Origin: an uncultured bacterium
Lineage (GTDB): Bacteria > Patescibacteriota > Dojkabacteria > J137
Length of the DNA: 64,000 nt
Direction of reading: 5' to 3'
Assembly (NCBI GenBank): GCA_963700155.1
Contig: OY969472.1
Location: 66,058 to 130,057 of the forward strand
Shown: positions 15,480 to 28,964 of the stretch, piece by piece
Layout: each line of letters begins with the position of its first letter
Position numbering within the stretch: the stretch's first letter is position 1
Position numbers and translations under genes: made by a program
Notes under the pieces: generated by a model
What the model was told of the DNA's origin: nothing
Seen by the model: only the letters and a program-made list of their open reading frames with translations
Databases searched by the model: none

Positions 15480-15634
15480 AGATTCATATAGGTATGAATA
15501 TAAATCCCTTAGTTGGGAACAGACATCATAATAAAGAATTTTTGTGATTTAGTAATATTCATATTAAGAATTTTATCAGATGAAATTGTTATAGACAAAT
15601 TTTATTAGCTATTTTAAAGATTCAATAGCGAAAA

Positions 15635-15652
15635 GGGGGATTTTCATCCCCC
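15635..15652 (-). terminator. GC hairpin GGGGGA-TTTTCA-TCCCCC after the stop of the truncated paralog, marking the left edge of the island
   Basis: 6-bp GC stem, then UUUUCG on the minus strand. Confidence 0.4.
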
Positions 15653-15661
15653 TTTTCTAAA

Positions 15662-15871
15662 CTATCCTTTCTGAAGAGTTTCCTCTTCACTAATGATTTC
15701 AACAGGCCCATCTGCTGATTCGAGGAACCTCTTAGGTTTCTCAGGTAGATGATTTTTCCTCTTCAACTCGGATTCGTCTTCAGCAAGATTGTCCCAAAAA
15801 GTACTTACCTTTAGTTTTACCCATTCAACCAGAAGTTGATAGAGCAAATTAGGGACTATAATGCAGACCAC
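15662..15871 (-). pseudogene. truncated copy of the island membrane-protein family (C-terminal 69 aa only)
   Basis: aligns with the C-terminal tails of 16097-16621 and 17853-18329 (EKPKRFLESADGPVEII versus EETPKNDLVWHEESLEII); the upstream reading frame runs about 20 further codons, then stops where the sequence becomes AT-rich. Confidence 0.45.
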
Positions 15872-15948
15872 TGTTATAAGCAGCGGAAGTTCAGGGAAAA
15901 CCTTACCTACCGCATAAATAATGAGATTAAATTACTGTTAAGAGCATA

Positions 15949-15974
15949 AAGAATGGTTTAGTTTTAAAAGAACT
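15949..15974 (-). promoter_or_regulatory. island promoter-like box, copy a (plus strand AGAATGGTTTAGTTTTAAAAGAAC)
   Basis: one of seven copies of TTTTAAAGAAC, each 40-200 nt upstream of a minus-strand unit. Confidence 0.4.
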
Positions 15975-16010
15975 TTAGTACTAAATAATTTTTTACATTA
16001 GCACTTAACT

Positions 16011-16073
16011 TTTACCGTTTCGTCTTACCAATTACTTGGAAGACTCTTCAGTCCAGCTTCGCTGGAGACGGTC
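16011..16073 (-). ncRNA. hammerhead ribozyme, type III topology (HHR1)
   Basis: on the minus strand: GACCG-GUC | UCCAGC-GAA-GCUGGA | CUGAAGA | GUCUUCC-AAGUAAUU-GGUAAGAC | GAAA | CGGU; all core positions present. Confidence 0.7.
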
Positions 16074-16074
16074 A

Positions 16075-16091
16075 GGGGGATTTTATCCCCC
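16075..16091 (-). other. GC hairpin GGGGGA-TTTTA-TCCCCC between the stop codon of the 174-aa gene and HHR1
   Basis: 6-bp stem; no U-run; abuts the 5' arm of hammerhead stem III. Confidence 0.4.
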
Positions 16092-16096
16092 TTTCC

Positions 16097-16621
16097 CTAA
16101 ACCATACCTTTCTCCAATCTTTCGTCGATTGTGGCGTCAACCACGAGGAGACTCTCTCCATTCCAATGGAGATCTTCGTTCTTCGGCTTCTCTTCGTTCT
16201 TATCCTTCTCAGGTTCCATTGGGACAAGATATTTCCCAACCCAATGGTAGCGTACTGGTTGATTCTCGTTTTTCTTTTTTTCCTCGTTTCCAGAATTCTC
16301 CCACTTCAATACCCAGGTTAAGATAAGCCGTGGTCCATCAATTACCAAGTTATAGCACAGCAATACCATCACCATTGGTAATAAATCAAACATCCAATGA
16401 TTAAGGTATAGGTCGAGTAGGTGTATTACGAACACCATCATAGGGATACCTATCTTGAGCCATCCCCACACATCTTCTCTTGTTTCATTTTTAAACCAGA
16501 AATCGGTGAAAAAATCGCCAAATAGAACGCCAAAAACGATAAAAAAAAGGACAGCCAGTATCACGTAGATTACTTTCCCGACGACTACAACAACGACTTT
16601 GGCAATACGTTTTACAGACAC
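16097..16621 (-). CDS. island membrane protein family member (174 aa), 2-3 TM helices plus K/E-rich C-terminal tail
   Basis: GTG start 7 nt after AGGAGGG; GC-rich codon use; paralog of 17853-18329. Confidence 0.5.
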   Translation of the reverse strand: MSVKRIAKVVVVVVGKVIYVILAVLFFIVFGVLFGDFFTDFWFKNETREDVWGWLKIGIPMMVFVIHLLDLYLNHWMFDLLPMVMVLLCYNLVIDGPRLILTWVLKWENSGNEEKKKNENQPVRYHWVGKYLVPMEPEKDKNEEKPKNEDLHWNGESLLVVDATIDERLEKGMV

Positions 16622-16661
16622 TTTGATTCCCTCCTTTGCGGGTTGAATATCTTGAGAAATT

Positions 16662-16686
16662 AGAATGGTTTAGATTTTAAAAGAAC
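16662..16686 (-). promoter_or_regulatory. island promoter-like box, copy b (AGAATGGTTTAGATTTTAAAAGAAC)
   Basis: near-identical to copies a and d; 41 nt upstream of the 16621 start. Confidence 0.4.
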
Positions 16687-16942
16687 AATAAGTATTAAAT
16701 AAAAAATTTTACATTAATACTAATTCTTATTTTATTATATCATAAAAAATATATAATGTATATATCGTGTATTAATTAGAGTTTATCAAATGTTTTAGGA
16801 GAAACAAATATCTGCCCTCAAACAACATCCCGATAAAATCAAGATCCCTACCGTGTTTAAGGGCATATATTTACCTACGAATTATACCATTCAGAGTGTA
16901 TTTTAATATTTTTGGACTGTAGGGAAGTCCAATATTATTTTA

Positions 16943-17003
16943 CAAACCTTTCGTCTTACCAAATATGGAAGACTCATCAGTCCCGATTATCGGGAGAGGT
17001 TTT
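16943..17003 (-). ncRNA. hammerhead ribozyme, type III topology (HHR2)
   Basis: on the minus strand: AAACC-CUC | UCCCG-AUAA-UCGGGA | CUGAUGA | GUCUUCC-AUAUUU-GGUAAGAC | GAAA | GGUUU. Confidence 0.7.
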
Positions 17004-17009
17004 GGCGGG

Positions 17010-17387
17010 ATTCATATAGACTTTAACTAAAGTATCCCGCCAATTTACGCCACAGAGTGAATCATTTTGATATCTCCTCTAGAATCGAACATCTGGGCAA
17101 AAGCCCTTTGATCATTCACTTTAGCTAGTGAGACTAAAGTACTCAATAACTCCTTCGATGTTCCATCTTAGGTAGTTGATCAGGTCAAGTTACTGACCCT
17201 ATTGAGTTTGCACTAATATTTTTAGTACTATCGCATCGGCCCCAGAGAATTAGCTAACTCCGTACCGACTTTGCGCACAGGCAGTTTGTGATTTAACACA
17301 GCAGAGGGCTACTAACCACGATTTGAGTAACTAACCCAAACCAACATCTGCACTTATACCCTGTGAATTTTGTAATTCCCTCGAGAA
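17010..17387 (-). ncRNA. ORF-free structured segment between the 90-aa gene and HHR2 (3' UTR or independent ncRNA)
   Basis: GC-rich, no ORF of 60 aa or more; several hairpins (GGGC-AAAA-GCCC, GGTCA-AGTTAC-TGACC, ACTTTAG...CTAAAGT). Confidence 0.3.
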
Positions 17388-17660
17388 TTATTTCAAAGTT
17401 AACTCCTTGTATCTACGGATTCCCTGCACAACGCCTCTATAGAAGCAATCTCCAGCGGGATACCACTGGAGTGAGTCCTGTTCACGCATCTCAATCTTGA
17501 GATACGTTTCGAGTCCCCCATGGTCCTCCACGATGACCAGGAATACTACATGACCCCGTGGGTCTTCAACCAGAAACTCGCAGTATTGACCTGCGAGGTC
17601 AAGGTCGAGCTTTTGAAGCTCGACTGCCGCCGCAATTTCGAACCTTGAGTATTTATTCAT
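17388..17660 (-). CDS. island soluble protein, 90 aa, unknown function
   Basis: ATG 5 nt after GGAGGAG; GC-rich; no motif recognised. Confidence 0.45.
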   Translation of the reverse strand: MNKYSRFEIAAAVELQKLDLDLAGQYCEFLVEDPRGHVVFLVIVEDHGGLETYLKIEMREQDSLQWYPAGDCFYRGVVQGIRRYKELTLK

Positions 17661-17681
17661 CTTCTCCTCCACAGAGAACTA

Positions 17682-17697
17682 CATGCCAAATGGCATG
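17682..17697 (-). promoter_or_regulatory. palindrome CATGCC-AAAT-GGCATG in the 5' leader of the 90-aa gene
   Basis: 6-7 bp inverted repeat about 25 nt upstream of the start; same element upstream of two other island genes. Confidence 0.45.
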
Positions 17698-17750
17698 AGC
17701 TTATAGACATACATCTACAAACTGCTGCCATCTAACAATTCGATAGTATA

Positions 17751-17763
17751 AATTTTTAAAGAC
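17751..17763 (-). promoter_or_regulatory. island promoter-like box, copy c (AATTTTTAAAGAC)
   Basis: immediately downstream (minus sense) of HHR3; 91 nt upstream of the 17660 start. Confidence 0.35.
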
Positions 17764-17821
17764 CCAGTTTCGTCTTACCAAAATTTGGAAGACTCATCAG
17801 TCAGGCTAAGCCTGAGACTGT
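17763..17821 (-). ncRNA. hammerhead ribozyme, type III topology (HHR3)
   Basis: on the minus strand: CACAG-GUC | UCAGGC-UUA-GCCUGA | CUGAUGA | GUCUUCC-AAAUUUU-GGUAAGAC | GAAA | CUGGG. Confidence 0.7.
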
Positions 17822-17842
17822 GGAGAGGAATTTCACCTCTCC
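17822..17842 (-). other. GC hairpin GGAGAGG-AATTTCA-CCTCTCC between the stop codon of the 158-aa gene and HHR3
   Basis: 7-bp stem abutting the 5' arm of hammerhead stem III. Confidence 0.4.
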
Positions 17843-17852
17843 GATTTTGACT

Positions 17853-18329
17853 TTATTTCTTTTTTCTAAACCATCCTTTCTGAGGATCTTCGTCCTCCTC
17901 TATGATCTCAAGCGACTCTTCGTGCCACACAAGATCATTTTTGGGGGTTTCTTCGTTTTTCTTTTTCTTCTCTTTCTCCTCTTTATCCTCTGGAATCTTC
18001 TCCCAGAATCTAAAAAGAAGAATCCTGACTCCATCAACCAGGAGTTGACCTACCATGTAGGTCGCTAACATGATTATTAAAGCTTGGATTACGACTTGCA
18101 CTAAGTCATAATTCATGGGATTAATTGAATTCGTGAACATTATTATTGCTATTGCCCCGATAATAAGGGGTAATACCAATTTGAAAAAAAAGATTGAGGA
18201 GGTATTGCCGTGTAGCATCCACCAGTCCCAATCACCAAAGAATAAAACAGAAAATACCCTCCCCAAATTCTTCTTGGAAAGTCTGATATAGTTGTAAAAT
18301 TTTCGTAGATCCCGACGAGTGATCATCAT
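17853..18329 (-). CDS. island membrane protein family member (158 aa), 3 TM helices plus K/E-rich C-terminal tail (holin-like topology)
   Basis: paralog of 16097-16621 (shared LFGD...W, LLVDGVRIL, EETPKNDLVWHEESL motifs); SD AGGGAG. Confidence 0.5.
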   Translation of the reverse strand: MMITRRDLRKFYNYIRLSKKNLGRVFSVLFFGDWDWWMLHGNTSSIFFFKLVLPLIIGAIAIIMFTNSINPMNYDLVQVVIQALIIMLATYMVGQLLVDGVRILLFRFWEKIPEDKEEKEKKKKNEETPKNDLVWHEESLEIIEEDEDPQKGWFRKKK

Positions 18330-18413
18330 TTACTCCCTAGTAGAAAAATTGAACGAATTGTCATAATCGACATTCTAAGAACTTTGAGTACTCAAAATGC
18401 CGACTATGACTTA

Positions 18414-18437
18414 AGATGGTCTAGATTTTTAAAGAAC
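18414..18437 (-). promoter_or_regulatory. island promoter-like box, copy d (AGATGGTCTAGATTTTTAAAGAAC)
   Basis: 85 nt upstream of the 18329 start. Confidence 0.4.
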
Positions 18438-18472
18438 TTTATATTAATCCCAATGTAAAAGCATAAAAGGTT

Positions 18473-18496
18473 TCTCCCCTGATTTCTCAGGGGAGA
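18473..18496 (-). terminator. perfect hairpin TCTCCCCTGA-TTTC-TCAGGGGAGA downstream of the 337-aa gene
   Basis: 10-bp stem; U-rich tract follows on the minus strand. Confidence 0.4.
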
Positions 18497-18685
18497 GATA
18501 ACGAAATTTCAGACTTTAGTCTATCTCCAATTGGAGATTGTACCTGCACAAGGCAGGATTTTTCTGATCTATTCTTTTCTCAGGTTTATAACGGGTCTGC
18601 TAACCGTACAGTTCAGCCTGGTAAGGTTAGACTAAAACTGTCCCTAAGCTTTATTCAAGTTTAGGTTTGAGATATGAAATTTCAC

Positions 18686-19699
18686 CTAACGTCGATAGAT
18701 CATCCCAGACCCAAAGGCTTTGGGTGGGGATATCTTCATCCCCATTCGAGCGAATACACTTTCAAGGCGTGTTCGCTCTGACTCAAGTTTGAAGTTATCT
18801 CCCCCGGTGGGGAAGAACACAAAAACCTGAGTTTTGGGGTTTTGTTCAAGGATGACACGAATATCATCCTCTCCCGCTCCAACTTGAAGCGGAAACGACG
18901 TTGAAAACGGCTGGGTTTCCACCCAGCCGATAATTTCTGAGAGCGGCTTCAAGCCGCTCGAAGTGTAATCAGGGAGAGTGATGCGAACACCCTCTCCCTC
19001 CGTATAAATTGTCCAGATTCGTCCCTTCTCGCGGAGGGAAAACAGCTTTGCCCAAATCTGGGAATCGCTGCTCTGAGCTAGGACACTGGCGACGTACGAG
19101 TCCAACTCGTAGCCTCCAATGTCCATCCCAACCATACCCGCCGTGTAAGCGAATGCCCCCGCAGCTTGGCGGAGATAAGCGCCGGACACAATGAATGTGT
19201 CCGGCTCCCGTTCGAACCACTCAATGTGGTCGAACACGAACGGGGTCACGGGATCAACCGTGACCTTCAAAAAAGCTTGGTCGTGCTCAACCTGAGCACG
19301 ACCGTTTGCAAACCGGACAGCTTCAGCAGCGATTTTCATCGCTGCCTCCACCGCCCAGTTCGAGTCAGGGTCGTCCGCCCAGCGGGTGACCCATTCTTTC
19401 GAAATCCCAGCCTGGCGTTCGCCAGGCACGGAAACAATAACCCCCCAGCGGAGCTGGGAAGTATTGAGCCATTGCGGCATCGCTGCCGCAACGACTCCCG
19501 GGGTATTTTGCATGACAACCGCCTCGGCAGAGGCGGTAATTGCTTGCTGCTCGATCTCGGTCAACTGACCGATAACTTCAGCTTTGTTGAGCGCGAACGT
19601 AACGTTCGCGCTTCCAACAACTTCGACTTGGATGTGGCCGAAGTCGGTCGCATGACGACCGACAACAAAGAACTTTTTGGTTTGAATTTCATTTGCCAT
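18686..19699 (-). CDS. island 337-aa protein, unknown function (strongly GC-biased codons)
   Basis: ATG preceded by GGGGAGGAG; no catalytic or structural motif recognised from sequence alone. Confidence 0.5.
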   Translation of the reverse strand: MANEIQTKKFFVVGRHATDFGHIQVEVVGSANVTFALNKAEVIGQLTEIEQQAITASAEAVVMQNTPGVVAAAMPQWLNTSQLRWGVIVSVPGERQAGISKEWVTRWADDPDSNWAVEAAMKIAAEAVRFANGRAQVEHDQAFLKVTVDPVTPFVFDHIEWFEREPDTFIVSGAYLRQAAGAFAYTAGMVGMDIGGYELDSYVASVLAQSSDSQIWAKLFSLREKGRIWTIYTEGEGVRITLPDYTSSGLKPLSEIIGWVETQPFSTSFPLQVGAGEDDIRVILEQNPKTQVFVFFPTGGDNFKLESERTRLESVFARMGMKISPPKAFGSGMIYRR

Positions 19700-19710
19700 T
19701 TTGAATCTCC

Positions 19711-19725
19711 TCCCCTTCGTGGGGA
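19711..19725 (-). promoter_or_regulatory. 5-bp GC hairpin overlapping the SD of the 337-aa gene
   Basis: minus strand UCCCC-ACGAA-GGGGA; the 3' arm is part of the GGGGAGGAG SD. Confidence 0.3.
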
Positions 19726-19741
19726 CTTAAAAGAACAGATT

Positions 19742-19759
19742 TCATGCCCATTGGCATGA
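19742..19759 (-). promoter_or_regulatory. palindrome TCATGCC-CATT-GGCATGA in the leader of the 337-aa gene
   Basis: 7-bp inverted repeat; a related TGCCA-A-TGGCA core at 19791-19801. Confidence 0.45.
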
Positions 19760-19900
19760 GTCAGAAAACAAATTTTTGCTTTCAAGCTACTGCCAATGGC
19801 AATCTTCTCTTTTTAGAGTTAGACATTGAAAATTTCGTTTGCAGTTATACTGCTACATTGAAATTAATATTTTATGAAGTTATTAAAATTAATTAATAAC

Positions 19901-19916
19901 TTGTTTTTTAAAGAAC
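19901..19916 (-). promoter_or_regulatory. island promoter-like box, copy e (TTGTTTTTTAAAGAAC)
   Basis: about 200 nt upstream of the 19699 start. Confidence 0.35.
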
Positions 19917-20113
19917 ATCTTCTTAAAAGAAGAGATTAATTTAAAAAGACTAAAATACCCTCTTATTTCAAGGTTCGAGAGGTGGTCTTTAGCCACCCCT
20001 CATTTGTATTCTACTTGATTACTAAAAAAACTTAAGTTTTCAAGTAGATAGACTTTAGACATTTTTCACTCGCACCTATTTCTAGGTTGCCTCTTTGTGA
20101 GTTTTTTGGTGGG

Positions 20114-20527
20114 TTAAAAAGATTCCACCTCATGAACTCCCCCAAGGGGGCTGCTAACCAGCCGGGTCGCCCCGACTGACTCAGCGATCCGATTCAGCCG
20201 AGGACTGACCTCGGCAATCCTCAAAAGGAGGTCACTCTTTTTGGGATCCTCCACAGGAGTATCCCAAAGTTCTTTTGCCTCCTCTAAGGTGTAGGGCATA
20301 CCGCCCTCCACCCTAATTTCGACGCCCACCCACTGGGCGTCGACCTCGAGGTATTTAACCTCGGCTTTGAATCCTTCCTTTAGGAAGGATTGCAAAACCT
20401 GTTCTTTCTTCGCCTGCATACCTTGCAGGCGAACGATCATACCCTCCAAGGTTTTTACACCTTCGAGAAAATCCCCCACCCTAACGGTGGGGTATAGACC
20501 GTCATCAAAGTGCATTGTTACTTTCAT
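20114..20527 (-). CDS. island soluble protein, 137 aa, unknown function
   Basis: ATG 5 nt after GGAGGAG; the ORF-track start at 20566 is the ATG inside the leader palindrome and is unlikely. Confidence 0.45.
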   Translation of the reverse strand: MKVTMHFDDGLYPTVRVGDFLEGVKTLEGMIVRLQGMQAKKEQVLQSFLKEGFKAEVKYLEVDAQWVGVEIRVEGGMPYTLEEAKELWDTPVEDPKKSDLLLRIAEVSPRLNRIAESVGATRLVSSPLGGVHEVESF

Positions 20528-20549
20528 TTTTCTCCTCCTCGGAGAATAT

Positions 20550-20568
20550 TCATGCCCGAATGGCATGA
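20550..20568 (-). promoter_or_regulatory. palindrome TCATGCC-CGAAT-GGCATGA in the leader of the 137-aa gene
   Basis: 7-bp inverted repeat; this leader is about 75% identical over 105 nt to the 90-aa gene leader. Confidence 0.45.
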
Positions 20569-20620
20569 GTATATAGACACAAATCTACATACTACTACCA
20601 TTCAGCAATTTGAAAGTACA

Positions 20621-20634
20621 AGTTTTTAAAGAAC
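20621..20634 (-). promoter_or_regulatory. island promoter-like box, copy f (AGTTTTTAAAGAAC)
   Basis: 94 nt upstream of the 20527 start. Confidence 0.4.
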
Positions 20635-20639
20635 ACTGC

Positions 20640-21350
20640 TTTCACAGAGGTTGATAAACTTTTTGATTTACCAACCTCTATTAAAGCTTTTAAGGACTGC
20701 CCTGCTCTCGCGGGGCTTTTGTCATTCGACTTACTTTAAGACTTTTCTCTTACACCTCGGCCACAACGGCTTGGAGGTAAATTTTGTAAATGCCGAAAAA
20801 CTCGGAATTTACTATTTAATATTTGTCTGCATTATATGCAGCACTTTGCTTCGGACAACTAATGTTACCCCCGACCATAATTGCATCTCTCCTATCACTT
20901 TTCGGAGAGAGGATTGAAAACTTTTTAAAATTCTCAATCCTCTCCCCGAAAATCGGGGAAAGGAAAGTCTTTGCTCAAGTGATAGTAACTTGAGACTACT
21001 ATCTTTTTAACCGGTTAACTGTACCTCGCTTTTACGAGACCACCAGTAATCTAACCGATCATCCAGATAATCAAGTATTTAAATACTTAACTACCTTGGT
21101 AGGGTAAGGTAACAAATATATAAATATTTGATTACCTAAATAGCTAGTTCGTACTCACATTTAAGTGAACCACCGAATTTAGCATTAAGCTTTTGTTTAA
21201 TGGAACAAAGCCTAAAAAACAAAAAAAGCTTAGCGTGACTTAAGATAATTCAATCTTAAACCTTGCTAAGCTTTCTAAAAAAACATATTATATTTTTAAT
21301 ATTAATATGTTCAAGCCAATAAGGTAGGATTTATTATCTTGAGCAAATAT
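20640..21350 (-). ncRNA. ORF-free, hairpin-dense segment of about 700 nt; candidate structured RNA with its own promoter box
   Basis: at least 10 stems of 6-9 bp (AGAGGTTG..CAACCTCT, TCTCTCC..GGAGAGA, GAGGATTGA..TCAATCCTC, CCCCGA..TCGGGG, CTCAAGT..ACTTGAG, TTAACCGGTTAA, AAGTATTTAAATACTT, GCTTAGC..GCTAAGC); box g at its upstream end; the only ORF (88 aa, plus strand) looks spurious. Confidence 0.3.
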
Positions 21351-21351
21351 T

Positions 21352-21366
21352 AAGTTTTAAAAGAGC
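21352..21366 (-). promoter_or_regulatory. island promoter-like box, copy g (AAGTTTTAAAAGAGC), no ORF downstream
   Basis: marks the right edge of the island; followed on the minus strand by the structured ORF-free segment. Confidence 0.3.
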
Positions 21367-21563
21367 ATTTATTACTTTAAAGATATTACTATTATATACC
21401 TAGATATATAATATGTCAATACATGGCAACAAATTTTATATATTTTGACATATCACCTATTCACCCTATCAATAAGGCTATCAACAAATCGACGCTGCAT
21501 TATTTACTATTTTTTCACCAATTAGTGATAGTTTTTATCAAAAATGAGTTAGAATAAATACAT

Positions 21564-23728: not shown

Positions 23729-24487
23729 ATGATTAATACAACAGATATTGGAATAACTGATAAAGCTTTTGAACTTTACTCAATACTTTTAAAAAATGGG
23801 CTCTCCACTGTTGGCTACTTAATAAAACAGTCTGGTTATAAAAGAGCAACAGTCTATAAAAACTTATATTCCTTAGAAAGTATCGGATTAATTACAAAAA
23901 TTGATGTTAAAAAAGTAATCAATTTTAAAGCAGAACCTCCCAAAAAATTACTTGAATTAGCAGAAAAAAAATATATTGACACAAGACGTGTCTTATCTGA
24001 TATTGAAGGTCTTTTACCTGATTTAAATTCTGATTATATTTTATCAACTGAAAAACCAATAGTTACAACATTTGAAGGTGTAAAAGGATTAAAAAAGATA
24101 TATGAAGATATGCTTTCCGAAAAAAAGGAAATATTTGCAATTTTACAACCAAGTATTGTTGAACCGGAATTATTTAACTGGCTAAATAAAAATTTTTTTA
24201 AAAGAAGAAAAAAATTAGGAATAAGAGTAAATGCATTAGTATCAACTGGTAGTTGGTCCACTGACTATGTAAAACAAACAGAAAAAGATGATATTGGTAA
24301 AACTAGGTTAGTTTCTAGTCAAAAATATCCTTTCAAACTTGAGATGGATATTTTTGGCGACAAGGTGGCTTTCATTAACTACAAAAAGGGCGAGCCTCTA
24401 ATTGGGATTATTATCCACAATCCTTTTATTGCAAAAACAATGAAAGCCACCTTTGATTTAGCTTGGTTAGGAGCAGCAGATAGTTAA
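23729..24487 (+). CDS. TrmB-like HTH transcriptional regulator
   Basis: N-terminal winged-helix segment (GYKRATVYKNLYSLESIGLI) plus a C-terminal effector-like domain. Confidence 0.45.
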   Translation: MINTTDIGITDKAFELYSILLKNGLSTVGYLIKQSGYKRATVYKNLYSLESIGLITKIDVKKVINFKAEPPKKLLELAEKKYIDTRRVLSDIEGLLPDLNSDYILSTEKPIVTTFEGVKGLKKIYEDMLSEKKEIFAILQPSIVEPELFNWLNKNFFKRRKKLGIRVNALVSTGSWSTDYVKQTEKDDIGKTRLVSSQKYPFKLEMDIFGDKVAFINYKKGEPLIGIIIHNPFIAKTMKATFDLAWLGAADS

Positions 24488-25378: not shown

Positions 25379-28048
25379 TTAATAGTTTATCGATATCCAT
25401 TTTTTTAAACAATCAAGAACTTCATCTTTTGAAAGGTCTGCTCTTCTCATAATCATCTTTTCATTATTACCTTCTATACCATATCGGACTACAATTTCAG
25501 TATCTCCTCCATTCTCAAAACATTTTTTTAAATTTTGTAACTCACTTTCATCTGTTACACCTCGTATATCAATATTTAATTTTCTTGGTTGATGTAATGT
25601 GTTCCCATGTTCTACTTCATTTACTATAATTGATTTCCTATCGTCGCGAATATTTATTGTACCTCTGATAATTAAAGGTGTTGTTTCGAGAAGCAAATGT
25701 TGAATTTTTTCAAAAGTTCGGGGAAATACAACTGCATCAGCTTTACTTGTGTCATCTTCAAGTGTAAGTATCGCCATCCTTTGATTATCTTTCTTAGTAA
25801 AAGTATATCTTACATTAGAAATAGTACATAGAACTTTAATATTCTTATTGTGTTCTAATTCATCTATTGTGTTTAATTTAACAAATTCTGGGAAAATTCT
25901 TGTCCATCCAAATCTCTGTAAGGGATGAGATGAGATAAAAATTCCTAAAAGCTCTTTTTCCCATTTTATTTTCTCGTTCTCTCTAACAGGATCAACTTCG
26001 GGTAAAGTAGTTGCATTAACTTTTCTTACAACGGGTTCTTCATCACCACCTAAAAGACTAAATAAGTCAGTCTGATTTTCATCAACAGCTTTTGATTTTA
26101 TATTCGCCTTTTGTAAAACTTCTGGCATTACAGTTAAAAGCGCATTCCTATCCCCAAATTCATCTAATGCACCTGAACGTATTAAACTTTCTAATGATCT
26201 TTTATTAATAATATCTGTTCCAACTCTTACTACTAAATCATCCATGCTTGTATATACTCCATTTTCTTCTCTTTCTTTTATAGTCGTTTGACAAACTTTA
26301 ATCCCAACATTTTTTATAGCACCTAACCCAAATCGGATAGAATCTTCGTTTTCAGGGGAGAAGTAAACTTTAGAAGTATTTATATTTGGTGGCAAGACTT
26401 TATAACCCATTCTTTTAGCTTCTTGAATATCAATTGTAACCCTATCTAAATTTTCAAGGTCAGCATGCATCAAAGCTGTCATAAATTCTAAAGGGAAATG
26501 TGCTTTTAAATATGCACATTTATATGCCAACACAGCATACCCAGCAGCATGAGCTTTATTGAATCCATAATCAGCAAATGGCAAAAGCATTTCCCAAAGT
26601 TTATCTGCTACTGCCTGCGAAAAGCCGTTTTTTACGATTCCTTCTTTAAATTTTGGCTCTTCTTTCTTCATTACATCAAGTTTCTTTTTCCCGACGGCTT
26701 TTCGCAGGCTATCAGCTGCACCCATATTATAACCTGCTAAATCTACAGCAACTCTCATCAACTGCTCTTGATAAATCATATATCCATTTGTAACATCAAC
26801 AATATGTTTAAGTTCAGGAATTGGATATTCAGCTTTTTTTAATCCATGTTTTATTTTTATATAGTCAGGGATGTATTTCATGGCACCTGGACGATATGCA
26901 GCAACCATAAAACAGATATCCTCTTGTGTTTCAGGTCTAAGTTCTTTTAGATATTGCTGCATAGGTGGTGACTCAAACTGGAATACACCAATTGTTTCAC
27001 CTTTAGAAAATATGTCAAAGGTTTTTTTATCATCTGAAGGAATATTATAAAAATCTACATTATTTCCATCTTTTCCATTAATTAACTTAAGAGCATAATC
27101 AATAATACCTAATGTTCTTAAACCCAAGAAATCAAATTTCATTAAACCTAACTCTTCAATATATGGACCTTCAAACTGAGTTACAGTTCTACCCTCACCT
27201 CCTCGCTCTTTTTGAAGTGGAACATAGTTTATTATTGGACCTGGAGTAATAAGATGTCCGCAAGCATGTACTGAAGAATGTCTCCCCATATTCTCAATCT
27301 TGCGAACATAATTAGCAAGTTCCTGAAGCTTAGGATTTCCATTTATTATCGAAGAAAATTCTTCATCTGTCTCCATCATCTTGTCTATTGGATAAACTTT
27401 TCCAAATAAAACGTGAACCATTTTAGAAAGCTTATCAGCTAATACTAAATCGATACCCATTACTCTTGCAACATCTCTAATCGCAGCTTTAGTTTTTAAT
27501 CTTCCAATGGCTATAATCGCAGAAACTGCATCTTCACCATATTTTTCTTGAGCATATGCAATAACCTCATCTCTTCTTGTATCTTGAATATCCATATCGA
27601 TATCTGGAGGTGAAGGCCTTTCAGGGTTTAAAAATCTTTCAAAATAAAGTTCCCACTTTAAAGGTTCAACCTCAACAATTTCAAGACAATGAGCAACAAC
27701 ACTTCCTGCAACAGAACCTCGTACTCCCATAAGGATTCCCTGGCTTGCTGACCATTTCATTAAGTCAGAAACTACAAGAAAATAATCATCGTATCCTTTG
27801 TCATGAATAACACCTAATTCATATTCAATTCTTTCAAATAAATCATCACCTAAATAATCTTTTAAAGTTTCATAATTTGCATTATCAATTTCTTGAAGCA
27901 TAAAATCATTAGTTAATGACTTTTTCTCATGACGATATTTAGAATCTTTATATTTTATTATTGCACCTTGATAAGTCTGCTTTTTTAAGTTCATCTCCTG
28001 CAGTGCTTCCTTTTGGTACATTCCAAAACTTTGGCTGAACTCTGTCAA
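25379..28048 (-). CDS. dnaE: DNA polymerase III alpha subunit, polymerase core and C-terminal part (in a different frame from the PHP part)
   Basis: DnaE palm/fingers motifs (GYDDYFLVVSDLM, FDFLGLRTL, KAHAAGYAVLAYKCAYLKAHFP). Confidence 0.8.
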   Translation of the reverse strand: MTEFSQSFGMYQKEALQEMNLKKQTYQGAIIKYKDSKYRHEKKSLTNDFMLQEIDNANYETLKDYLGDDLFERIEYELGVIHDKGYDDYFLVVSDLMKWSASQGILMGVRGSVAGSVVAHCLEIVEVEPLKWELYFERFLNPERPSPPDIDMDIQDTRRDEVIAYAQEKYGEDAVSAIIAIGRLKTKAAIRDVARVMGIDLVLADKLSKMVHVLFGKVYPIDKMMETDEEFSSIINGNPKLQELANYVRKIENMGRHSSVHACGHLITPGPIINYVPLQKERGGEGRTVTQFEGPYIEELGLMKFDFLGLRTLGIIDYALKLINGKDGNNVDFYNIPSDDKKTFDIFSKGETIGVFQFESPPMQQYLKELRPETQEDICFMVAAYRPGAMKYIPDYIKIKHGLKKAEYPIPELKHIVDVTNGYMIYQEQLMRVAVDLAGYNMGAADSLRKAVGKKKLDVMKKEEPKFKEGIVKNGFSQAVADKLWEMLLPFADYGFNKAHAAGYAVLAYKCAYLKAHFPLEFMTALMHADLENLDRVTIDIQEAKRMGYKVLPPNINTSKVYFSPENEDSIRFGLGAIKNVGIKVCQTTIKEREENGVYTSMDDLVVRVGTDIINKRSLESLIRSGALDEFGDRNALLTVMPEVLQKANIKSKAVDENQTDLFSLLGGDEEPVVRKVNATTLPEVDPVRENEKIKWEKELLGIFISSHPLQRFGWTRIFPEFVKLNTIDELEHNKNIKVLCTISNVRYTFTKKDNQRMAILTLEDDTSKADAVVFPRTFEKIQHLLLETTPLIIRGTINIRDDRKSIIVNEVEHGNTLHQPRKLNIDIRGVTDESELQNLKKCFENGGDTEIVVRYGIEGNNEKMIMRRADLSKDEVLDCLKKWISINY

Positions 28049-28964
28049 AAGCTATACTATAATCTTCTATTTGTTCAGATATTTTCATTGTATTTTCTAC
28101 TGCGGAGATTTCATCGGAAAACTTCTCTTCCATCTCTTCAGATGATGTTATATAAGTCCCAACGTAACCTTTTCTACAAGTTTCATCTGAGAGAAGTTTT
28201 CCGTCTTTTATTGCAAATAGTACTGTTTGAACATCTTTATCTTCAGCGTCTAAATAATGAGCGTCTGTAGTGGCTACAAGCGGAAGTTTATATTTGTCTG
28301 CGAATTCTCTTAGCTTTAAATTCGCGAATTTCTGTTGTCTTGCATCATCAATAGATTCTTCACCTGAGTCATCATTTAAGTTTGAGCTAATTCTCGACTT
28401 TTCACCACTAGTTAAATCATCACTTCCATTAAAGCCATGACGCTGCAATTCTAAATAAAAGTTATCTTTAAAAGTATTACTAAAGAATTGCAGCCATTCT
28501 TCTGCTTTATCAAATTCTTTTCTTAAAATATGCCTTGATAATGGGCCAGCCATACATGCTGAAGTACAAATGATGCCTTCAGAATATTTTTGTAAAATTT
28601 CTCTATCAACTCTAGGTCTATAATACATCCCCTCTAACTGTCCAATACTTACAATTTTTAATAAATTTTGATAACCAGTAAAATTCTTAGCAAGAAGTAA
28701 TAAATGATAATATTTTATACCACCGACTGTCTCTCTAAGAGTTCTCTCTTTTGGTGCAAGATAAATTTCGCAACCGATTATCGGTTTTATATGAAAATCT
28801 TTGGAATATTTCCAGAATTCAGCCATTCCATACATAACGCCATGGTCAGTTAAAGCTACAGAATCCATTCCAAGTTTTTGGACTTTATCTAAAAGTTTTG
28901 GGATTCGATTAACACCATCCAATAATGAATATTCTGAGTGTACGTGTAAATGTGTGAACGACAT
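27948..28964 (-). CDS. dnaE: DNA polymerase III alpha subunit, N-terminal PHP domain part
   Basis: FTHLHVHSEYSLLDG PHP signature; overlaps the next dnaE ORF by 101 nt in another frame, with an A6 run in the overlap. Confidence 0.8.
   Translation of the reverse strand: MSFTHLHVHSEYSLLDGVNRIPKLLDKVQKLGMDSVALTDHGVMYGMAEFWKYSKDFHIKPIIGCEIYLAPKERTLRETVGGIKYYHLLLLAKNFTGYQNLLKIVSIGQLEGMYYRPRVDREILQKYSEGIICTSACMAGPLSRHILRKEFDKAEEWLQFFSNTFKDNFYLELQRHGFNGSDDLTSGEKSRISSNLNDDSGEESIDDARQQKFANLKLREFADKYKLPLVATTDAHYLDAEDKDVQTVLFAIKDGKLLSDETCRKGYVGTYITSSEEMEEKFSDEISAVENTMKISEQIEDYSIAFDRVQPKFWNVPKGSTAGDELKKADLSRCNNKI

Follow-up and report, generated by a model that had tools for sequence, protein, structure and literature searches.

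A palindrome in three gene leaders of a foreign island in a Dojkabacteria genome is part of a structured and probably bistable RNA element

Three genes in a 64,000-nucleotide stretch of DNA from an uncultured bacterium of the Dojkabacteria lineage J137 (GTDB: Bacteria; Patescibacteriota; NCBI GenBank assembly GCA_963700155.1, contig OY969472.1, positions 66,058 to 130,057 of the forward strand; referred to as the window in the following) carry the palindrome CATGCC-N4-5-GGCATG in their 5' leaders. These genes, named A, B and C here, encode soluble proteins and belong to an island of higher GC content. Folding of the leaders and comparison of the three copies showed that the palindrome is part of a cis-acting structured RNA, which is most likely an mRNA processing or stability signal and not a DNA switch. 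Altogether, the leader element represents a new motif of a familiar kind, probably bistable, within a foreign island that is punctuated by predicted hammerhead ribozymes. The finding is modest and local, as it rests on the sequence of one genome.

The occurrence of the palindrome was analyzed by scanning the pattern CATGCC-N(3-6)-GGCATG over the whole window, with 100 dinucleotide-preserving shuffles serving as null model. Exactly three matches were obtained (Table 1), compared with 0.01 expected, and none of the 100 shuffles reached this number. These are the very sites with arms of 6–7 bp and spacers of 4–5 nt that a preliminary description of this DNA had listed. The arms comprise 6 bp in leader A and 7 bp (TCATGCC/GGCATGA) in leaders B and C, and the spacers measure 4 nt (A), 4 nt (B) and 5 nt (C). 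All three palindromes are located on the coding (minus) strand, 21 (A), 43 (B) and 23 (C) nt upstream of the gene's ATG, and each is followed by the Shine-Dalgarno (SD) sequence GGAGGAG, as had been described. The same description assumed that an ATG inside the palindrome had been mistaken for the start codon in two cases. This applies to gene C only, for which the list of open reading frames (ORFs) gives 150 aa starting at the palindrome ATG (20566) and the NCBI annotation 137 aa. In leader A, a GTG within the SD sequence serves as the start of the mechanical ORF, and the palindrome ATG reads MPFGM-stop; in leader B, the palindrome ATG is out of frame. A leader peptide encoded by an upstream ORF from the palindrome ATG (MPFGM-stop in A; 22 codons in B) is unlikely, since no SD sequence lies ahead of this ATG.

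Folding of the whole leaders revealed the same architecture in A, B and C. It consists of a basal helix of ~12 bp (P1), a conserved 2x2 internal loop, an upper helix (P2) capped by a tetraloop and, a few bases after P1, a small hairpin (P3) with half of the SD sequence as its 3' strand. The 3' strand of P1 is the palindrome core including its 'spacer', and the 5' strand is located ~40 nt upstream. The internal loop between P1 and P2 (G-Y/C-A) reads G-C/C-A in leader A and G-U/C-A in leaders B and C. P2 consists of 11 bp plus the tetraloop in A and C, and in B it has another sequence with a like layout. Together, P1 and P2 form a hairpin of 57–87 nt with ~23 bp, or two helical turns, and the internal loop at its centre. 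This long hairpin is the minimum free energy (MFE) as well as the centroid fold of all three leaders, with z-scores of -5.3, -3.9 and -7.0 for the full leaders and -6.2, -6.1 and -4.8 for the hairpin alone. Within the full leader, the local hairpin of the palindrome has a probability of ~0 in A and C and of 0.06 in B, and forcing it costs 9.1 (A), 5.8 (C) and 1.0 (B) kcal/mol. Both arms and the 'spacer' pair with the upstream segment, and the palindrome therefore does not form a stem-loop of its own in the full leader. The extra spacer base of leader C appears as a bulged G in P1. The 'related core' TGCCAATGGCA that had been pointed out at 19791–19801 is indeed present, but in the predicted fold it is the 5' strand of P1 in leader B and not a second site.

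The preliminary description had proposed an RNA stem-loop at least as much as a DNA operator, based on conserved arms and a variable spacer. The RNA level is supported by G-U pairs, strand asymmetry, spacer length and compensatory changes, but the stem-loop is not autonomous in the complete leader, and the spacer, which does vary in length, pairs and covaries with its upstream partner. Many G-U pairs are used in the long helix, and the sense strand folds with -28.6 (A), -28.6 (C) and -31.2 (B) kcal/mol compared with -11.6, -16.4 and -26.6 kcal/mol for the antisense strand. In line with these energies, a covariance model built from the sense structure scored 79, 78 and 66 bits on the sense strand and 25, 19 and 15 bits on the antisense strand. 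As this model found no further copy in the window, the membrane-protein genes of the island lack the element, which had already been noted.

Leaders A and C share 81% identity across 77 nt, a conservation that is far wider than the palindrome and had been overlooked. They differ by 11 substitutions and one indel. Eight of the 11 substitutions fall in paired columns and none of them breaks a pair: four are wobble-compatible single changes, and the other four form two double-compensatory changes, one from A-U to G-C between the fourth spacer base of the palindrome and the upstream strand and one from U-A to A-U in P2. When the A/C substitutions were placed at random, no pair was broken in 0.08% of 200,000 simulations (P ~0.0008). 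Across all three copies, 91% of the cells are paired, compared with 30–42% when the partners were slid by one to three columns, and four pairs change on both sides. Leader B has diverged almost everywhere but in the palindrome and the loop core; it swaps A-U for U-A at another spacer position, and its P2 is wholly replaced with the architecture kept. The surroundings of the internal loop (UGGYA-GY-AG ... CU-CA-UGCCA) are invariant even in this diverged leader. Since the spacer bases change together with their upstream partner, the spacer is a paired, covarying segment and not a loose loop. Altogether, the comparison of the copies indicates that the long hairpin is very probably a selected RNA structure.

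P1 alone does not require that its 3' strand be self-complementary. The palindrome arms are invariant in all three copies, compared with changes at 6 of 12 positions in the partner strand of P1. Moreover, the arms take in the loop bases CA and the tail bases UG, both of which are unpaired in P1, and the palindromy exceeds P1. With arms that are identical, reach past P1 and face a variable partner strand, the 3' strand appears to be under a second constraint, which suggests that the local hairpin is also selected. The isolated palindrome hairpin is predicted at -10.6 to -11.9 kcal/mol, and a hypothetical RNA beginning at the first palindrome base would fold into this hairpin without unpaired 5' bases, plus P3. 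According to these models, the local hairpin is a plausible second state once the upstream strand has been removed.

The explanation for two such states that we tentatively favour is based on RNA processing. The ideal substrate of bacterial RNase III comprises ~22 bp, is twofold symmetric and is cut at its centre, internal loops in RNase III substrates give single-strand cuts, and the early polycistronic RNA of phage T7 contains five RNase III signals (PMC3867540). The double helix of ~20–22 bp expected of such a signal is found in the leaders (P1 of 12 bp and P2 of 11 bp in A and C, with B being longer), and the 2x2 internal loop lies near the helix centre in all three copies. In the proposed mechanism, a transcript including the upstream segment would fold into one long interrupted hairpin, and cleavage of the central loop by an RNase III-like enzyme would detach the upstream strand. 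The freed palindromic 3' strand, starting with the loop bases CA, could then refold into a hairpin exactly at the new 5' end and act as a 5' stabiliser of the mRNA. A 5'-terminal stem-loop is known to protect mRNA from 5'-end-dependent decay (see the references listed in PMC3997798). Together with the three hammerheads of the island, a long transcript might in this way be cut into stable single-gene mRNAs, and a sequence-specific factor may also read the element by means of the invariant bases around the internal loop. As a complete chain of events, this process-and-refold mechanism is a tentative but realistic proposal that builds on fold models.

The element shares several features with known systems. 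Like the RNase III signals of phage polycistronic RNA (T7 R0.3-R1.3, R1.1), it is a hairpin with an irregular stem of roughly two helical turns and an internal loop halfway up the stem, located just upstream of a cistron in a phage-like, multi-gene block on the same strand, and its helix shows a pseudo-twofold sequence symmetry suiting a homodimeric enzyme. However, there is no sequence relationship to the T7 signals. In addition, the core of the leader element is invariant and its 3' strand is a perfect palindrome able to refold 5'-terminally, a property that is undescribed for T7. If the upstream strand were removed, the palindrome hairpin would have no unpaired 5' bases and would stand directly ahead of the SD region, similar to the 5'-terminal stabilisers of ompA and papA; those are, however, made at a primary transcription start and not by refolding after processing. 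Two mutually exclusive pairings with one common strand are also typical of bistable leaders such as attenuators and riboswitch expression platforms. In contrast to these, the leaders lack an aptamer as well as a leader peptide equipped with an SD sequence, A and C have no terminator U-tract, and the proposed trigger is cleavage instead of a ligand or a ribosome.

If the process-and-refold mechanism holds true, a processing signal and a stabiliser would reside in the same 16 bases, and a single cut would convert one into the other. This would provide a foreign gene cassette with a compact route to a stable, translatable mRNA in a new host, and ribozyme-based and protein-nuclease-based processing would occur side by side in one transcript. 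The case also advises caution in reading short perfect palindromes of leaders as isolated hairpins or operators, as the 'loop' spacer pairs elsewhere here.

Several observations weigh against cleavage followed by refolding. RNase III needs no specific sequence, so that the invariant core bases are not explained by this enzyme alone, and neither leader B nor leader C has a hammerhead before it. With palindrome arms that are invariant, the local hairpin lacks covariation support of its own. Furthermore, the comparative evidence comes from three paralogous copies in one genome, of which A and C are close relatives, and independent covariation is missing, with no homologous leader in viral, metagenome, genome, phage and plasmid collections. 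Scans of viral contigs for the palindrome gave 97 matches, all of them to the palindrome only and as expected by chance, and pattern scans for the extended leader and for the hammerhead subtype of the island had no match. The preliminary description had suggested searching metagenomes; a scan for the palindrome plus SD sequence returned four matches in metagenome contigs and six in genome contigs, all in unrelated high-GC sequences with no common flank. A low-stringency blastn search with the whole island as query had no match in phages and plasmids, and the leader model found nothing in 912 kb of viral contigs retrieved with a relaxed hammerhead probe. Rfam 15 contains no family matching the palindrome and leader region at the gathering threshold, and at E <= 10 only microRNA models at noise level appeared. 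Going beyond the proposed mechanism, the element could represent a new class of processing-triggered RNA switch, in which a sequence-specific factor reads the invariant loop core, the precursor hairpin is cut there and the 3' strand refolds in a cap-like manner beside hammerheads, in an undescribed element of ORFan cassettes in a small-genome, AT-rich bacterium with the motif GTTCTTTAAAAA marking each cassette. We consider this extension speculative and improbable.

A simpler reading would have transcription start downstream of the upstream partner, so that the palindrome acts as a local RNA stem-loop near the 5' end, either as a stabiliser or as a protein-binding hairpin. The perfect, invariant arms of 6–7 bp, the stability of the isolated hairpin and the palindromy beyond P1 are consistent with this, as is the presence of GTTCTTTAAAAA upstream of every cassette, where it could be part of an internal promoter. 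However, the covariation between spacer and upstream strand and the absence of broken pairs between A and C (0/8) would be left unexplained. The motif lies 15 nt before the 5' strand of P1, and a start just after it would still include this strand; a sigma-70-like promoter was not found inside the hairpin. In the case of leader A, HHR1, the first of the three hammerheads, ends 24 nt before the P1 5' strand, and the gap contains no terminator; HHR1-bearing transcripts must therefore run into P1 and carry the upstream strand as well. The local stem-loop as the whole explanation is rather unlikely. Alternatively, the long hairpin and P3 might form a translational operator or sensor, with a protein of the host or the island, or temperature, controlling ribosome access without cleavage. 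P3 overlaps the SD sequence in each leader, and the differences seen in B are compensatory (UCCCC/GGGGA vs UUCUCC/GGAGAA), and the internal-loop core, invariant even in B, suggests sequence-specific recognition. P3 is short (5–6 bp), though, P1-P2 does not touch the SD sequence, the predicted folds give no alternative pairing between P1 and P3, and no RNA-binding domain was detected in any island protein, which makes this alternative unlikely. If the element were a transcription attenuator, the local palindrome hairpin would be the terminator and the long hairpin an antiterminator sequestering its 5' arm. The two folds are indeed mutually exclusive, and a terminator scan weakly flags the palindrome of B (19759–19742, then AAUCUGUUCU), but in A and C no U-tract comes after the hairpin, and the stem has only 6–7 bp. 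In addition, the antiterminator fold is favoured by 6–9 kcal/mol in A and C and forms first during transcription; the switch would therefore be locked on unless an unknown factor intervenes, and we regard an attenuator as quite improbable.

At the DNA level, the perfect inverted repeat at three genes of one class could be a double-stranded operator for a dimeric repressor, with a second operator in leader B at 19791–19801, and the gene of a winged-helix (TrmB-like) regulator is located 2 kb from the island (23729–24487). However, spacings of 4, 4 and 5 bp deviate from a fixed distance and change the phasing of the half-sites, and the stability is strongly strand-asymmetric. The upstream partners of A and C (TGTTAGATGGCA, TGCTGAATGGTA) are poor DNA palindromes and perfect RNA partners via G-U pairs, and a model with two DNA operators therefore does not fit. 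Moreover, the sites stand just before the SD sequence with no sigma-70-like promoter at them, and no DNA-binding domain was found in the island proteins. A DNA operator is thus very improbable. Finally, a functionless leader module could have been copied ahead of the three genes, which would have passed on palindrome and pairing by common descent. Leaders A and C clearly arose by duplication, and the element occurs in one genome only, but every in-pair substitution since the duplication has kept the pairing, and B has the same architecture despite its divergence outside the palindrome and loop core. This explanation is already disfavoured, and we give it the least weight of all. Two further readings were rejected by inspection. 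A sigma-54 promoter at TGGCAG-N-TTG in the P1 5' strand would have a spacing that is one base short and lacks the -12 GC, and a GTTRRRY-like core as in an integron attC site is present in leader A only and in the wrong orientation.

Table 1 Positions of the leader elements, hammerheads and genes in the window.
Feature	Position	Strand	Description
Leader A palindrome	17682..17697	(-)	CAUGCC-AUUU-GGCAUG; 17684-17695 = P1 3' strand
Leader A P1 5' strand	17726..17737	(-)	UGUUAGAUGGCA; pairs with whole palindrome core including spacer
Leader A P2	17698..17723	(-)	11 bp + GUAU loop; separated from P1 by 2x2 loop GC/CA
Leader A P3	17662..17678	(-)	UUCUCU/GGAGAA; half-sequesters SD GGAGGAG (17664-17670); ATG 17660
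Leader B palindrome	19743..19758	(-)	CAUGCC-AAUG-GGCAUG; 19745-19756 = P1 3' strand
Leader B P1 5' strand	19791..19801	(-)	UGCCAUUGGCA; from the fold; 'related core' of the preliminary description
Leader B whole hairpin	19727..19813	(-)	extra lower helix, P1, loop GU/CA, P2 of different sequence
Leader B P3	19711..19725	(-)	UCCCC/GGGGA; overlaps SD; ATG 19699
Leader C palindrome	20551..20567	(-)	CAUGCC-AUUCG-GGCAUG; 20553-20565 = P1 3' strand, one bulged G
Leader C P1 5' strand	20596..20607	(-)	UGCUGAAUGGUA; from the fold
Leader C P2	20568..20593	(-)	11 bp + UUGU loop; internal loop GU/CA
Leader C P3	20530..20546	(-)	UUCUCC/GGAGAA; over SD; ATG 20527
HHR1	17762..17823	(-)	predicted type III hammerhead; ends 24 nt upstream of leader A P1 5' strand
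HHR2	16943..17003	(-)	predicted type III hammerhead; Rfam RF00008 match below gathering score
HHR3	16012..16074	(-)	predicted type III hammerhead; core CUGAAGAG; Rfam RF00008 match below gathering score
Gene A	17388..17660	(-)	90 aa, ORFan
Gene B	18686..19699	(-)	337 aa; N-terminal domain with 15 distant relatives in phage replication modules
Gene C	20114..20527	(-)	137 aa, ORFan
M1, M2, M3	15662-15871, 16097-16621, 17853-18329	(-)	paralogous small membrane proteins, 33-35% identity
GTTCTTTAAAAA/GTTCTTTTAAAA sites	20623-20634, 19905-19916, 18426-18437, 17753-17764, 16675-16686, 15962-15973	(-)	
Higher-GC island	15630..21420	(-)	5.7 kb; 37-58% GC vs ~29% in window/genome

The island begins with a perfect consensus sigma-70 promoter (TTGACA-17-TATAAT, 21419–21391, minus strand), which is located at its upstream edge and points into the island. 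A single long transcript of the island might start at this promoter and run as far as the terminator at 15652–15636 (minus strand). In the direction of transcription, the promoter is followed by ~750 nt of structured non-coding RNA, leader C with gene C, leader B with gene B, and M3; further downstream are a hairpin with HHR1, leader A with gene A, 384 nt of non-coding sequence, HHR2, M2, HHR3, the M1 remnant and the terminator. The non-coding segment at 20636–21000 (minus strand) folds with an MFE of -134.7 kcal/mol (z = -10) and matches no Rfam family. It contains a perfect 25-bp hairpin (~20895–20955) as well as a 16-bp hairpin directly before the GTTCTTTAAAAA motif. The stretch between gene A and HHR2 (17004–17387, minus strand) comprises 384 nt without an ORF. 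It has ~41% G+C, is moderately structured (z = -3.3) and could represent either a cassette in decay or a non-coding RNA that the ribozyme sets free.

On the minus strand of the island, each of the six cassettes has a copy of the motif GTTCTTTAAAAA (or GTTCTTTTAAAA) ahead of it, six in total. In A, C and M3, the distance from the motif to the long leader hairpin is exactly 15 nt. The motif is not sigma-70-like; an internal promoter recognised by an unknown factor and a site for a single-strand nuclease are both conceivable. An archaeal TATA element was rejected as a reading of the motif, since DnaE, MutS and DnaK identify the host as a bacterium. The source contig measures 1.14 Mb and was assembled from run ERR11571143. 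Besides that, the host dnaE appears to be split into two overlapping ORFs (27948–28964 and 25379–28048, minus strand), which suggests a frameshift, a sequencing error or programmed slippage.

Proteins A and C have no relatives among 5.8 billion proteins, and the structure model of C was unusable, with a predicted local distance difference test (pLDDT) score of 55. The N-terminal domain of B was confidently modelled and has no fold match in PDB or BFVD. All 15 distant relatives of B are found in ordinary phage replication modules without leader, palindrome or hammerhead, and a search of genome contigs with protein B found nothing. In general, the island proteins match no entry in Pfam, PHROGs, PADLOC or the PDB sequences. 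The membrane proteins M1, M2 and M3 each have a lysine/glutamate-rich tail, with M1 being a C-terminal remnant only, and the three genes have a separate conserved upstream block in common (TAATGTAAAA...GTTCTTTTAAAATCTAAACCATTC). The leader of M3 forms its own, unrelated hairpin of ~20 bp (GUCAUAGUCGGCAUU.../...AAUGUCGAUUAUGAC; 18345–18410, minus strand), and that of M2 is unstructured.

The three hammerheads of the island are predicted self-cleaving ribozymes. HHR1, HHR2 and HHR3 match RF00008 with 38.3, 34.3 and 32.3 bits (E = 1e-5 to 5e-4), which is below the gathering score of 48.5; the long insert in stem II lowers the score. The catalytic core (CUGANGA...GAAA) is intact in all three, the cleavage triplets GUC, CUC and GUC conform to NUH, with cleavage predicted at about 17815, 16995 and 16066, and stems I and II are closed and stem III is open, as in the type III topology. 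Pairing is complete (100%) in stems I and III, and each of these two stems contains three double-compensatory pairs; stem II is invariant. Each hammerhead is preceded by a G+C-rich hairpin, and they are located after M3, after M2 and after the 384-nt spacer behind gene A. Previous work on prophages described hammerhead clusters flanking single genes, which were shown to cleave and presumably divide long transcripts into mRNAs of gene length (Perreault et al. 2011, PMC3088659). The island resembles them in having three type III hammerheads, all on the coding strand and interspersed with genes without known function, within a foreign element. In contrast to those clusters, the island contains neither an integrase nor any other hallmark gene of phages. 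Its hammerheads are located next to the palindrome element without being part of it, and leader A is the only leader with a hammerhead directly before it. The relaxed hammerhead probe retrieved >120 viral contigs, which carry type I hammerheads unrelated to those of the island. These have a near-invariant stem II (CTGATGAGTCTTTGAAAATTAAGACGAAA); many of the contigs come from metagenome 3300045988, and some contain two or three copies.

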